Shown here piece after piece: positions 11,501-17,500 of a stretch of DNA of 22,394 bases; position 1 is the first letter of the stretch; each line of letters opens with the position of its first letter. The stretch comes from a virus. Its lineage: Duplodnaviria > Heunggongvirae > Uroviricota > Caudoviricetes. The position numbers were made by a program. Location: IMG/VR virus record IMGVR_UViG_2627853701_000001; one strand, written 5' to 3'.

Positions 11501-14500
11501 TACAGTTACGCCGGGTGGGGCTGCCTGCAGATATAACGATATTATTCCGGCCGACCACTGCCTGCATGATGTGCAGGATATGAGTACGCTGAATCATCCG
11601 AAGGCAGACCTGAGCAAAGGGCAGTACGGCTGTGTCGGCCAGGGCTTACATATTGCCAAAAAACTGCTTCCGTATATCCCGAATAACGCGGGGATCCTGC
11701 TGGTACCATGCTGTCGTGGTGGTTCGGCATTCACCCAGGGCGCGGAGGGGACATTCAGTGCGGACGCGGGGGCCAGCCAGGATTCGGCGCGCTGGGGTGT
11801 GGGTAAACCGTTATATCAGGACCTGATTGCGCGCACTAAAGCTGCATTACAGAAGAACCCGAAAAATGTGTTGCTGGCGGTGTGCTGGATGCAGGGAGAG
11901 TTTGACATGAGCGCCGCCACCCACGCACAGCAACCTGCGCTGTTTACAGCCATGCTGACACAGTTTCGTGCTGACCTCTCCGTGTTTAACGCGCAGTGCC
12001 ATGGTGGCAGTGCTGCAGATGTGCCGTGGATTTGTGGTGACACGACGTATTACTGGAAAAATACCTACGGCACCCAGTACAACACCATTTACGGGGCGTA
12101 CAAAAACAGGGAGAGTGAGGGCGTTTATTTTGTGCCCTTCATGACAGACGGTAACGGCGTCAATACCGCCACTAACGCGCCGGCAGAAGATCCGGATATT
12201 CCGGCATCAGGATATTACGGTGCGGCATCGAGAACGAATGGAAACCAGGTATCATCAAACCGCCCGACACATTTCAGTTCATGGGCGCGCAGGAGCATTA
12301 TTCCGGATCGTATGGCAACCGCTATTCTGAACGCAGCCGGGCGCACCTCAGCCTTCATCAGTGGTAAGGCACCGGAAATCAAACCCTCGCCCGGCGGCAA
12401 CACGCCATCGGGTCCGTCTGCAGATACGTCCGTTCGCACAATCTCCCTGCTGCCGGCAGCCGGAGAGGCTGCTGCGCAGGGCTGGAGCATTAAGGATGGC
12501 GGAATTCAGTTGTCAGATGGTGTATTTAAGATCACCAAGCAGAGCAATAAAACCTGGTCCCTGACGCATCCGGTGGATGACGCAATTACCCTGCTGACAC
12601 AGGGCGGCAGACTGACCTGTAAGTTCCGCCTGTCAGGCGCACTGACCAACAATCAGTTCGGGCTGGGGATTTATCTGTATACGGATGCTCCCGTTCCTGA
12701 TGGTGTGGCGATGACGGGTACCGGTAATCCGTTCCTGATGTCGTACTTCACTCAGACCACTGACGGCAGAGTGAATCTGATGCATCACAGGAAAGCCGGA
12801 AACACGAAGCTGGGGGAGTTCGGCGATTACGGTAACGACTGGCAGACGCTGGAGCTGGTGTTCACCGCCGGCAGTGCCACGGTTACTCCGAAACTGAATG
12901 GAGTGGCTGGCCCGGCATTCCAGGTTATAAAAGACAGTATGACACTGGGACTGAATGCGCTGACGCTGACGGATGTTACAAAAAATGCAGCGTATGGCGT
13001 TGAGATAGAAAGTCTGGTGCTGGAGATAAATGCACCGGCATCATCATAAAAAGTGAGCCAGTCAAATGGAAGGTATCGTTAAACTCACCGGTAGTGTCAG
13101 TGGGTCGTCTGAGACGCTGCATGAGTTATCAGAGCCATCAGTAGTTAACTGGTGGCTTTTTTATTGTTGTCAGCTTCCGGATAACGGGAGACGGGGTATG
13201 TACCAGATGGAAAAAATCACAACGGGTGTGTCATACACCACGTCAGCGGTGGGGACGGGATACTGGTTACTGCAGCTGCTGGACAAAGTCTCTCCGTCCC
13301 AGTGGGTGGCGATAGGCGTGCTGGGGAGTCTGCTGTTTGGGCTGCTGACATATCTGACGAACCTGTATTTCAAGATTAAAGAAGACCGGCGTAAGGCGGC
13401 GCGGGGAGAGTAAAGTGATGAAGAAAAAATACGAACTGGTTGTTAAAGGGATAAATAATTACCCGGATAAGATTACTGTTACTGTGGCACTGGAAATTGG
13501 TGGGTATCCGTCACTGTTGTTGCCAGATGTGGCGATTAGTCTTGACCGTACTGAAGGTGCCACGCTGGAGTTTTACGAAGCTGAGGCGAAAAAGCAGGCG
13601 AAGCAGTTTTTCATGGATGTTGCTGCCGGGTTATGTGAAGGGGATGGTCCGTTACCGGAAAAGCGTCCCGTAATTTTAGAGGCGCAGGATGTGTTGATAA
13701 CCTACAGAGGAAAACTACCGGGAATAATTACGGGTTCTCTGAAGACTCCACCGCTGGCCTGAAGACTTAACATATCTAGGGATTTGAAATCGATAAACCC
13801 TGATAAATATCCATGAACGCAAAAATCAGATACGGCCTGTCGGCTGCCGTTCTGGCGCTGATTGGTGCAGGGGCGTCTGCGCCTGAAATCCTCGACCAGT
13901 TTCTGGATGAAAAGGAAGGTAACCACACCACAGCATACCGTGATGGTGCGGGTATCTGGACCATCTGCCGTGGAGCCACCCGGGTGGATGGTAAGCCTGT
14001 GATTCCTGGCATGAAGCTGTCGAACGGTAAGCGTACAGCCTGAACCGTCTGGTCAGAATCTGACGAATTAGACAAAGTGGTGTCCACCAAATAAGTAGTG
14101 GGAACCAAAGTATCAGATATGCAGAAAAATGTGACTCCCGGCAGGCGAAAAGGCTGCCCTAATTATCCTCCCGAATTTAAACAGCAGCTCGTTGCTGCCT
14201 CCTGTGAACCCGGGATATCCATCTCAAAACTTGCTCTTGAAAATGGCATTAACGCCAATCTGTTGTTCAAATGGCGACAACAATGGCGCGAGGGAAAGCT
14301 GCTATTACCTTCTTCAGAGAGCCCCCAGCTACTTCCTGTGACTCTCGATGCAGCTGCCGAACAGCCAGAATCGCTCGCAGAGGACCCGGAACCCCTCAGT
14401 ATCAGCTGTGAGGTAACGTTCCGGCACGGGACGCTCCGCTTCAATGGCAATGTCAGCGAAAAGCTCCTGACTCTGCTGATACAGGAACTGAAGCGATGAT

Positions 14501-17500
14501 CCCGTTACCTTCCGGGACCAAAATTTGGCTGGTTGCCGGTATCACCGATATGAGAAATGGCTTCAACGGCCTGGCTGCGAAAGTACAAACGGCGCTGAAA
14601 GACGATCCCATGTCCGGCCATGTTTTCATTTTCCGGGGCCGCAGCGGCAGTCAGGTTAAACTGCTGTGGTCCACCGGTGACGGACTGTGCCTCCTGACCA
14701 AACGGCTGGAGCGTGGGCGCTTCGCCTGGCCGTCAGCCCGTGATGGCAAAGTGTTCCTTACGCAGGCGCAGCTGGCGATGCTGCTGGAAGGTATCGACTG
14801 GCGACAGCCTAAGCGGCTGCTGACCTCCCTGACCATGCTGTAAATCTCTTTATCCTGGTTGTCACAGAATAAGCCCGGTAAAATACGGGCTTATGAACGA
14901 CATCTCTTCTGACGACATCTTCCTGCTGAAACAGCGCCTGGCCGAACAGGAAGCGCTGATCCACGCCCTGCAGGAAAAGCTGAGCAACCGGGAGCGCGAA
15001 ATAGACCATCTGCAGGCGCAGCTGGATAAACTCCGCCGGATGAACTTCGGCAGTCGTTCCGAAAAAGTCTCCCGCCGTATCGCACAAATGGAAGCCGATC
15101 TGAACCGGCTTCAGAAAGAGAGCGATACGCTGACTGGTAGGGTGTATGACCCGGCAGTACAGCGTCCGTTGCGTCAGACCCGCACCCGTAAGCCGTTCCC
15201 TGAATCACTACCCCGTGACGAAAAGCGACTGTTGCCTGCGGCGCCGTGCTGCCCGAACTGCGGCGGTTCACTGAGCTATCTGGCGAGGATACCGCCGAAC
15301 TGAACCGCCCCGGGTTTCCTGGAGAGTGTTTTATCTGTGAACTCAGGCTGCCAGATCATCGTTTCCGATGGAAGCATAATAAGCTTTTTCTGCTTCTGCC
15401 GGAGGAGTATGGCCCAGCCTTCCCAGCAATCGTCGATTGTTATACCAGTCCACCCACGTTAGTGTGGCCAGTTCCACTTCTGCACGGTTTTTCCAGCTCT
15501 TACGGTGTATTACCTCCGCTTTGTAAAGACCATTGATGCTCTCAGCCATCGCGTTGTCATACGAGTCGCCTGTACTCCCTGTTGATGCCAGTAATCCGGC
15601 TTCTTTTAGTCGCTCCGTATAGGCCAGTGACACATACTGAGAGCCTTTATCGCTGTGATGGATGGTGCCAGACGGACGACGGGCCCACAACGCCTGCTCC
15701 AGCGCATCCAGCACGAATGTCGTTTCCATAGACGATGAGACCCGCCACCCCACGATGTATCCGGCAAACACATCAATGATAAACGCCACATAGACGAAGC
15801 CCTGCCATGTGCTGACGTAAGTAAAATCAGCCACCCACAGCTGGTCAGGTCGTTCTGCCACGAACTGACGGTTTACGCGGTCGCCTGCGGCAACGGCTTT
15901 CCGGCTGATGGTCGTACGGACCTTTTTACCCCGGAGAACACCGGCAAGTCCCATAACCGCCATGAGACGTGCCACTGTACATCTGGCCACCCTGATTCCT
16001 TCCCGTAACAACTGACGCCAGACTTTACGCACACCGTACACCTGATGATTTTCATCGTATACGCGCTGTATCTCTCTCTTCAGCCAGTCGTCGTGCTGCG
16101 CACGGGCACTGCGTTTATCCGGATGATGTCGCTGTTGCTGACAATGGTAATACGTTGACGGGGCAATATGCAGTTCGCTGCATACCGGTCCGACCCCGTA
16201 CTGCTCACGCAGCTTATCCAGCAGTGGCATCATTTTTTCCAGAGGCGGTCGAACTCCGCCTTCGCAAAATAAGCGGAAGCCTGGCGAAGGATATCGTTAC
16301 TGCGGCGCAGTTCACGATTTTCACGTTCCAGCTCTTTCAGACGCTGACGTTCAGCGCTGGTGAGCCCACCATCACCGCCCCCGGTATCCCGCTCATGCTG
16401 GCGAACCCAGACACGCAGAGTCTCCGGCGTACAGCCAATCTTTGGGGCAATGGAACAAATTGCCGCCCACTGTGAGTCATATTCATCCTGACTTTCCAGA
16501 ACCATACGAATCGCCCGCTGACGGACTTCGGGGGAAAAACGAGTATTTTTAGTCATCCTGTTTACCTCTTTCTCAGGGAGTTTAGTCTCCAGGATTTCCG
16601 GGGCGGTTCAGATGGCGCACTCATCACCGGACTGACCTTTCTTGCCCCCAAAGATGCCACACGGGTTCAGGGTTTTTTTCAGCATTTGCAGGTCAGGTTT
16701 GGTGACGGGCCGTGGCAGGATGTTAAGGGGCTGGATGAAGTGGGCAGTGATACAGGCAGAACAGGAGAATGACATGAATATACTAAAAAAACTTATGCAG
16801 CGTCTGTGCGGTTGCGGAAAGCATGATGACCGTGAACACGGGGAGTTACTTACAGCACAGCTGCGACTGGGGCCGGCAGACATCCTGGAGTCAGATGAGA
16901 ATGGCATTATCCCGGAGCAGGCCAGGGTAATCACGCAGGTGGTGATACTGGATGCGGATAAAAAGCAGATACAGTGCGTGGTAAGACCGCTGCAAATCCT
17001 GCGTGCTGACGGGACGTGGGAAAATATTGGCGGGATGAAGTAACCCGACAGCTTCACAAAACCGGAGTCCGGCTCCGGTTTTTGTTGTCATGTACGGTGG
17101 ATGTTTGTTATGACTCCCTGTGTTTGGAATGAATATTTAATAACAGGTGTCTGGAAATATAGGGGCAAATCTACTGGATAGGCTATTGGGGCGTGAGAAT
17201 CGAATGGAGAGAAGGGCTGTGGCTCTGGAAAGGCAATTAAATGGAGGTGTCGATTTTTTAAGGAGTGTTAATAACTATTTTCAGAGTGTCATGGCAGAAC
17301 ACAGAGAAAATAAAACAAGTAATAAAATATTAATGGAAAAAATAAATTCCTGTGTATTTGGAACGGATTCTAATCACTTTTCTTGCCCGGAGTCATTTTT
17401 GACATGCCCGATAACGCTGGACACACCTGCGAATGGAGTGTTCATGAGAAACTCACAAGGTGCTGAGATATGCTCTCTATATGATAAGGACACGTTAGTG

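Follow-up and report, generated by a model that had tools for sequence, protein, structure and literature searches.

IS629 at the joint of a large deletion in the defective prophage Sp17 of Escherichia coli O157:H7

Two insertion sequences between lysozyme and tail-fibre gene fragments

The DNA analysed here is the 22,394-nt virus record IMGVR_UViG_2627853701_000001, taken in its whole length and called the window below; all coordinates refer to it unless another strain is named. The 5' part of a phage lysozyme gene is followed in the window by a partial insertion sequence (IS) of the IS66 family, ISEc8, which directly adjoins a complete IS629 and, beyond it, the 3' end of a tail-fibre gene (Table 1). 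Its matches identify the window as prophage Sp17 at the ssrA locus of E. coli O157:H7, specifically the defective lambdoid part of that prophage. The 3.7 kb around these features has a match in 182 complete E. coli genomes at ≥80% of its length, and the best of these matches, at 99.9%, come without exception from O157:H7 strains or from E. coli records that carry no label. The annotation of strains TW14359 and Sakai places the region in Sp17 at ssrA (Sakai record GenBank NC_002695.2, 3476099-3500291). In Sakai a 1275-bp repeat_region 'ISEc8 Family: IS66 partial' directly adjoins a 1310-bp 'IS1203 Family: IS3', and the pair sits between a 231-bp 'phage endolysin' (ECs_3495) and a small tail-fibre-related gene. 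The structure is already annotated and explained, and represents ordinary, well-documented IS-driven decay of a prophage.

The lysozyme open reading frame (ORF) spans 13813-14043, with a Pfam Phage_lysozyme match confined to profile positions 2-37; it extends 17 nt into ISEc8, where it meets a stop at 14041-14043. The fragment is labelled a partial glycoside hydrolase in TW14359 and carries the endolysin label in Sakai. Homology to the intact lysozyme gene ends at 14026, where the intact gene reads on as ...GTCGAAGG|AAAAATGCG (...AAGCTGTCGAAGG|AAAAATGCG in the intact allele of O145 RM8988-C1); in O157 GAAGG is followed by GTAAGCGTACAGCC, the left terminus of ISEc8, from 14027. Thereafter the window matches nt 1-1275 of an ISEc8 reference copy (2441 bp) at 99.4% identity. 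That copy has both ends; in the window the left terminal repeat (beginning GTAAGCG) is present at 14027, and the right ~1,167 bp with the right terminal repeat are gone. Intact tnpC reads ...GCCGAAC|AGCTGGAG past the point at which the window passes into IS629. The truncated tnpC keeps its N-terminal LZ_Tnp_IS66 (leucine-zipper) region, and because it has no DDE domain, the ISEc8 of the window is classed from its sequence as an element remnant and not as a functional member.

The ORFs orfA and orfB of IS629 overlap in the manner of -1 frameshifting and together carry the Pfam set HTH_Tnp_1, HTH_21, rve and rve_3. The terminal repeats begin TGAACCGCCCCGG at both ends, the first 13 nt being identical between them. 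This copy is identical to that of TW14359, which is annotated as an intact programmed-frameshift transposase, and corresponds to the repeat_region IS1203 in Sakai. Its flanks are ...CCGAAC| on the left and |GATGGCG on the right, and re-inspection found no duplication of 3 bp (AAC/GAT) or 4 bp (GAAC/GATG). Target duplications at two other IS629 insertions, CGC/CGC in strain AUSMDU00014361 and GTT/GTT for the extra copy in strain 2159, served as positive controls. Lack of a duplication is common for this element, since one was present at only 21 of 47 mapped IS629 sites in O157 (PMC3271280). The Sp17 site is IS.20 of the survey by Rump et al., and A6 strains are polymorphic for it; clonal complex A6 is the only one with the Sp17 target, which A1-A5 lack (PMC3271280).

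To the right of IS629, window 16611-17076 aligns at 97% identity with an intact prophage tail-fibre gene, at its 3' end, and with the gene downstream of it; the intact site reads GGATACA|GATGGCGC. In the annotation the tail-fibre remnant is a C-terminal fragment without an N-terminus. Nucleotides 1276-2441 of ISEc8 have no match anywhere in the window, and a reading of the sequence beyond 16610 as tnpC in a different frame is thereby ruled out. The architecture described in a sequence-only reading of the window, with the lysozyme frame running into an IS66-family terminus at 14027, tnpC cut exactly at an IS629 terminus at 15301, no target duplication around the IS629-like element and sequence other than tnpC from 16611, was borne out in all these respects.

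Table 1 Features of the lysozyme to effector region of the window
Feature	Position	Strand	Basis
Lysozyme (endolysin R) gene, 5' 71 codons, cut off by ISEc8	13813..14026	+	Pfam and intact homologue
ISEc8 (IS66 family) remnant, nt 1-1275 of ~2442	14027..15300	+	99.4% identity
ISEc8 tnpA, intact	14120-14499	+	Pfam HTH_Tnp_1
ISEc8 tnpB, intact	14496-14843	+	Pfam TnpB_IS66
ISEc8 tnpC, first ~136 codons	14893-15300	+	Pfam LZ_Tnp_IS66
Complete IS629/IS1203 (IS3 family, IS51 group), 1310 bp	15301..16610	-	Sequence, Pfam
IS629 orfA	16556-16230	-	Pfam match
IS629 orfB (rve domain)	16233-15343	-	Pfam match
Tail-fibre gene, last 53 codons and stop; distal break point	16611..16772	+	97% identity
Small intact gene after tail fibre; first gene spared by the deletion	16774..17043	+	Pfam Phage_fiber_C, E=2.6e-34
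Type III secretion system effector cargo: nleG pseudogene, espW, nleG8-2, espM2	17147-20316		Annotation

Extent of the loss and natural variants of the locus

In an intact O145 prophage with a nearly identical holin/YdfR/lysozyme region, the lysozyme target and the tail-fibre site lie 24,218 bp apart, collinear and in the same orientation as in the window. The interval holds an antirepressor, an Rz-type lysis gene, terminase, portal, capsid, tail, tape measure, J and Lom genes and most of the tail-fibre gene, and no trace of it is left in the window. Adding the missing 1,167 bp of ISEc8 to the 24,218 bp, the loss therefore amounts to about 25.4 kb. O55:H7 proved unusable as an outgroup for the deleted interval, as the lambdoid part is missing from it and the Sp17a-like left integrase module is all that it has; this is consistent with the restriction of the Sp17 target to clonal complex A6 (PMC3271280). 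An intact IS at the joint, distant but collinear flanks and the absence of the intervening DNA together point to an IS-associated flanking deletion, a reading favoured because IS629 is intact and bounded by the unrelated 3-bp flanks AAC and GAT.

We surveyed 5,426 complete E. coli genomes, the set to which all population counts refer. The lysozyme::ISEc8 junction was found in 282 of them and the ISEc8/IS629 junction in 181. A search with 100-bp junctions (370 places in 198 records) gave both IS629 junctions in 172 genomes and only one in 26; it was preferred to a right-junction count of 207 genomes, which was set aside as inflated by the joining of nearby pieces. IS629 and ISEc8 are multi-copy in O157, and private 1-bp indels in the window resemble sequence errors, so that collapsed or mis-joined repeat copies might be suspected of having produced the structure as an assembly artefact. 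The occurrence of both junctions in 172 complete genomes, and the same architecture in the annotation of the finished Sakai genome, make this exceedingly improbable.

Sp17 without IS629 is present in 98 genomes. A comparison of strains with and without the copy had been suggested as a way of reconstructing the deleted interval; the interval is not restored in the IS-less strains, and what the comparison did reveal is a fusion of tnpC to the tail fibre that lacks two extra bp. The IS-bearing form reads CCGCCGA-AC-IS629-GA-TGGCGC, in which the AC genuinely belongs to tnpC. In the IS-less form the joint is ...GATACCGCC-GA-TGGCGCAC..., with tnpC in frame with the tail-fibre remnant, and is identical in all six of the IS-less genomes inspected. 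Relative to the IS-bearing form, AC, IS629 and GA are gone between two GA dinucleotides, a loss of 1,314 bp as against the 1,310 bp of the IS. On the lineage of the IS-less strains, PMC10758439 makes no usable statement.

The IS-less genomes encode a chimeric ORF of 188 aa, composed of the N-terminal 135 aa of TnpC followed by the C-terminal 53 aa of the tail-fibre protein (positions 33616-34182 of locus L007; in the window, 14893-15298 and 16613-16772 are the corresponding segments). It is listed in RefSeq as a 'phage tail fiber C-terminal domain-containing protein' (WP_001303014.1), and is very probably a meaningless fusion propagated as a member of a protein family.

The IS-less form is not ancestral, because the tnpC bases AC, kept in the IS-bearing form, are absent from its joint. 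Five single-nucleotide polymorphisms (SNPs) in Sp17 arrange the strains in a linear haplotype chain, Ha-Hb-Hd-Hc. Haplotype Ha was seen only with IS629 (the window and TW14359), as was Hc (Sakai and 6535WT); Hd was seen only without it (FRIK944, 644-PT8, DEC4E and 10671), and Hb occurs in both forms, IS-bearing in RM8376 and IS-less in SS NE 1040-1 and MB41-1. IS629-bearing haplotypes thus stand on both sides of the IS-less ones in the chain, and as an insertion cannot recur identically, these sequences indicate that IS629 is ancestral at the locus and that the IS-less state is therefore a secondary excision.

The same data bear on the possibility that the deletion arose independently of any IS, by illegitimate recombination at the GA microhomology that tnpC and the tail-fibre gene share, so that the IS-less form would be ancestral and IS629 would have been inserted later. 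In its favour is the IS-less joint found in 98 genomes, with its 2-bp microhomology. However, the two additional tnpC bases of the IS-bearing form have no place in it, a later insertion would have left a duplication of 3-4 bp, of which there is none, and IS629 would have needed to land exactly on the joint and, given the haplotypes on both sides, to do so in identical independent insertions. We regard this alternative as effectively refuted.

There are hints of more than one excision. IS-less genomes lie on Hb and Hd and IS-bearing ones on Hb and beyond Hd, on account of which the identical 1,314-bp excision at the GA microhomology may have arisen at least twice independently; the basis is a single SNP (12538), whose gene occurs repeatedly among the O157 prophages, and gene conversion is a possible confounder. 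That this IS629 copy is a still-active hot spot of recurrent deletion and excision is accordingly a tentative idea, which we hold to be rather less probable than its negation. If it were true, the locus would be a natural read-out, in wild populations, of end joining of the type promoted by the O157 IS-excision enhancer (IEE), and would introduce homoplasy into IS629-based typing. Whether IS629 is present or absent here already serves as a typing marker (IS.20, PMC3271280); the variants show that its absence reflects secondary excision, and not an empty ancestral site, which matters for the phylogenetic reading of IS patterns.

At least four further flanking deletions involve the same IS629 copy, and all spare the effector cargo. 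Strain 2159 keeps the right junction (|GATGGCGC); the left end of its IS now adjoins window position ~6283 in an IS30 remnant, so that 9.0 kb (window 6284-15300) are gone, and 186 bp away from this new joint the strain carries another IS629, flanked by a clean GTT duplication. The right junction is also kept in strain NE122, where 17,245 bp are gone leftward, into a DUF6387 gene. In strain 6535WT it is the ISEc8/IS629 junction that is kept, with 171 bp gone rightward. In strain RM8376 this IS629 is cut down to its first 1,087 bp and adjoined by another, full copy, and a right-hand deletion extends into the gene downstream of the tail-fibre remnant (~window 16923). These natural variants show that deletions which start exactly at either IS629 end and retain the IS arise at the Sp17 locus.

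Formation of the joint

We propose that three steps produced the present structure: insertion of ISEc8 into the lysozyme gene, a deletion of about 25.4 kb with IS629 at its joint, and continued activity of that IS629. We place the probability of this account as a whole at roughly 90%. In the first step a complete ISEc8 would have entered lysozyme gene R after codon 71. The position of this insertion is shown; that ISEc8 was complete at the time, and that it generated an 8-bp target duplication, predicted to be GTCGAAGG, we infer. Other O157 prophages (e.g. in FRIK944 and strain 155) carry full ISEc8 copies at different sites in or just upstream of their lysozyme genes, and the lysis cassette appears to be a recurrent target of ISEc8.

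In the second step a copy of IS629 came to lie at the joint of the deletion, an outcome that is seen directly and that more than one route could have produced. The losses comprise the right 1,167 bp of ISEc8, the remaining lysis cassette, terminase, all head and tail genes, and the tail-fibre gene except for its last 53 codons. The third step is shown by related genomes, in which the IS629 copy remained active: it was excised at the GA/GA microhomology in 98 genomes and gave rise to flanking deletions on either side in other strains. The sequence-only reading had attributed the loss of the structural genes to an IS-mediated adjacent deletion, and this finds support in the 24.2-kb collinear interval, the IS-less fusions, the haplotypes and the further deletions. 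It had also described the IS events as nested. The insertion of ISEc8 in the lysozyme gene and the joint between tnpC and IS629 are both confirmed; nesting as such is not proven, for IS629 may have entered the tail-fibre gene first and have been joined to tnpC later.

Some observations weigh against this account. Its predicted reciprocal junctions are missing: IS629-AAC-rest of tnpC and tail fibre-GAT-IS629 are contiguous in none of the 5,426 genomes. Also absent from these genomes as one contiguous piece is the ISEc8 right end followed by GTCGAAGG and the rest of the lysozyme gene, an end that the sequence-only reading had proposed to locate, with its duplication, in related genomes; no intermediate survives. 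Moreover, the copy-out-paste-in mechanism of IS3-family elements gives in itself no reason to expect a flanking deletion in one step with the IS retained (bioRxiv 10.1101/2023.06.07.543989). Full-coverage hits for the IS629 reciprocal junctions consisted of two separate pieces joined in the search, with the sole exception of a different insertion 5 bp away, and hits for the other ISEc8 end were ISEc8 copies at other positions near lysozyme genes of other prophages. Because no reciprocal junction survives, both the side on which IS629 originally inserted and the route of the deletion are deduced and not read from an extant sequence.

The insertion 5 bp away is that of E. coli AUSMDU00014361 (locus L005, 4156-5465), an unrelated strain in which IS629 lies in the homologous tail-fibre gene, in the same orientation as in Sp17 and with a CGC duplication; it is unique to this one genome in the survey. 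It shows that the tail-fibre site is a usable IS629 target, and it slightly favours the tail-fibre side as the original site of IS629.

The route we favour, with chances at or slightly above even, is a one-step transposase-dependent event at one IS629 end, possibly of the kind promoted by IEE. It is made plausible by reports of IEE-associated IS-adjacent deletions ranging from a few nucleotides to >40 kb (PMC9943667). Nearly as likely is a two-step route, which departs from the favoured account solely in the way the joint came about: one IS629 would have inserted in tnpC (AAC) and a second, direct copy in the tail-fibre gene (GAT), and RecA-dependent recombination between them would have deleted the interval, leaving one hybrid IS629 between AAC and GAT. 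This route predicts the observed flanks exactly and is orthodox for copy-out-paste-in elements (bioRxiv 10.1101/2023.06.07.543989). Local hops of IS629 in direct orientation, as seen in the second copy of strain 2159 (GTT) and the two adjacent copies of RM8376, make it feasible, and the independent same-orientation insertion with its CGC duplication near the tail-fibre break point is a further point in its favour. Neither of its parental junctions, however, is present in any of the complete genomes surveyed, and O157 carries IEE, which is reported to make IS-adjacent deletions directly (PMC9943667).

The prophage remnant and its relation to known IS-driven deletions

The window as a whole is a composite of two elements, 1-~6100 and 6100-22394. 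The left module contains two tyrosine recombinases, a DNA-binding protein, hypothetical proteins and a BamE-domain lipoprotein, and is shared at 99.8% with O55:H7 RM12579, in which it is followed by a relaxase/ABC-three-component/Hxs island and no lambdoid genes. The lambdoid remnant to its right is found in O157:H7 only, which fits the published division into Sp17a and Sp17b. Sp17 has been described as severely degraded and non-inducible, with two tandem elements (Sp17a/b) and nearly all phage functions gone (PMC2669165).

The lambdoid remnant is bounded on the left by a partial IS30 at ~6020-6830 (minus strand). Between this element and the HNH/ninG/Q genes there is no gene for a phage integrase, a repressor or replication functions, so that the early region was apparently removed in a second truncation associated with an IS. 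The IS30 remnant is also a repeated IS629 target, with IS629 copies inside it in strains 2159 and FRIK944. Short tandem repeats vary in number between strains at ~5267-5417 and ~6852; near 5267, inside a gene for a 452-aa hypothetical protein, there is an 18-bp insertion (GCCAGA x3), and indels of a TATTTC unit at 6852 range from -6 to +30 bp.

The window has the SNP haplotype of TW14359 and is identical neither to that strain nor to Sakai. Private to it, in comparison with TW14359 and the other O157:H7 genomes compared, are 1-bp deletions at 13117 and 15282, both of which fall in short G/C runs; also private is the replacement of G by C at 14025 and by A at 11958. These differences resemble errors in the sequencing of an older assembly, or else mutations specific to the strain, and since the deletion at 15282 is private, the tnpC frameshift that it causes just before the IS629 junction is strain- or sequence-specific.

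The effector cargo is kept in every deletion variant examined. Point defects in it occur in single strains, namely an internal stop in espW (10671) and a frameshift in espM2 (NE122).

The outcome of the IS events is an immobile, non-lytic prophage remnant that keeps its type III effector cargo, and they explain Sp17 as a fixed, non-inducible remnant that still delivers type III effectors (espW, nleG8-2 and espM2). The abstract of the 2009 study by Ooka and colleagues reportedly describes simple excisions and excision footprints, and is said to suggest that IS elements immobilise incoming phages. Sp17 may be seen as a textbook example of that idea, which has already been published for O157. Ooka et al. 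(2009) are also credited with recognizing IS629 and ISEc8 as an important driving force of O157 genomic diversity (PMC3271280).

Compared with Sp17 of Sakai, the window is alike in its ssrA locus, gene order, truncated endolysin, ISEc8 partial/IS1203 pair, tail-fibre remnant and espW/nleG8-2/espM2 cargo, with ~10 differences across ~17 kb aligned; it is unlike Sakai in its SNP haplotype (Ha, as in TW14359) and in its private 1-bp deletions. With the classical IS-mediated adjacent deletions of the IS1, IS10 and Tn3 types it shares a deletion that starts exactly at the IS end, a retained IS and the lack of a duplication. It differs from them in that IS629 is a copy-out-paste-in element of the IS3 family, for which an intramolecular replicative or cut-and-paste mechanism is not established. 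Closer parallels are the IS629-associated deletions and the IEE-promoted IS629 excision reported for O157 (Ooka 2009 Genome Res; Kusumoto 2011 Nat Commun; Calvo 2023 NAR); in the deletions, as here, IS629 is kept at the deletion joint without a duplication. IEE-dependent excision of IS629, with IS-adjacent deletions (PMC9943667), and IS excision at microhomologies of 2-4 bp (bioRxiv 10.1101/2023.06.07.543989) are both on record. The events in the sister strains are read from natural variants, and a dependence on IEE or transposase is suggested for them by analogy; they resemble the IS629/IEE events of the O157 literature (PMC9943667; bioRxiv 10.1101/2023.06.07.543989) both in the near-precise loss of the IS at a 2-bp microhomology and in flanking deletions, here of 171 bp to 17 kb.

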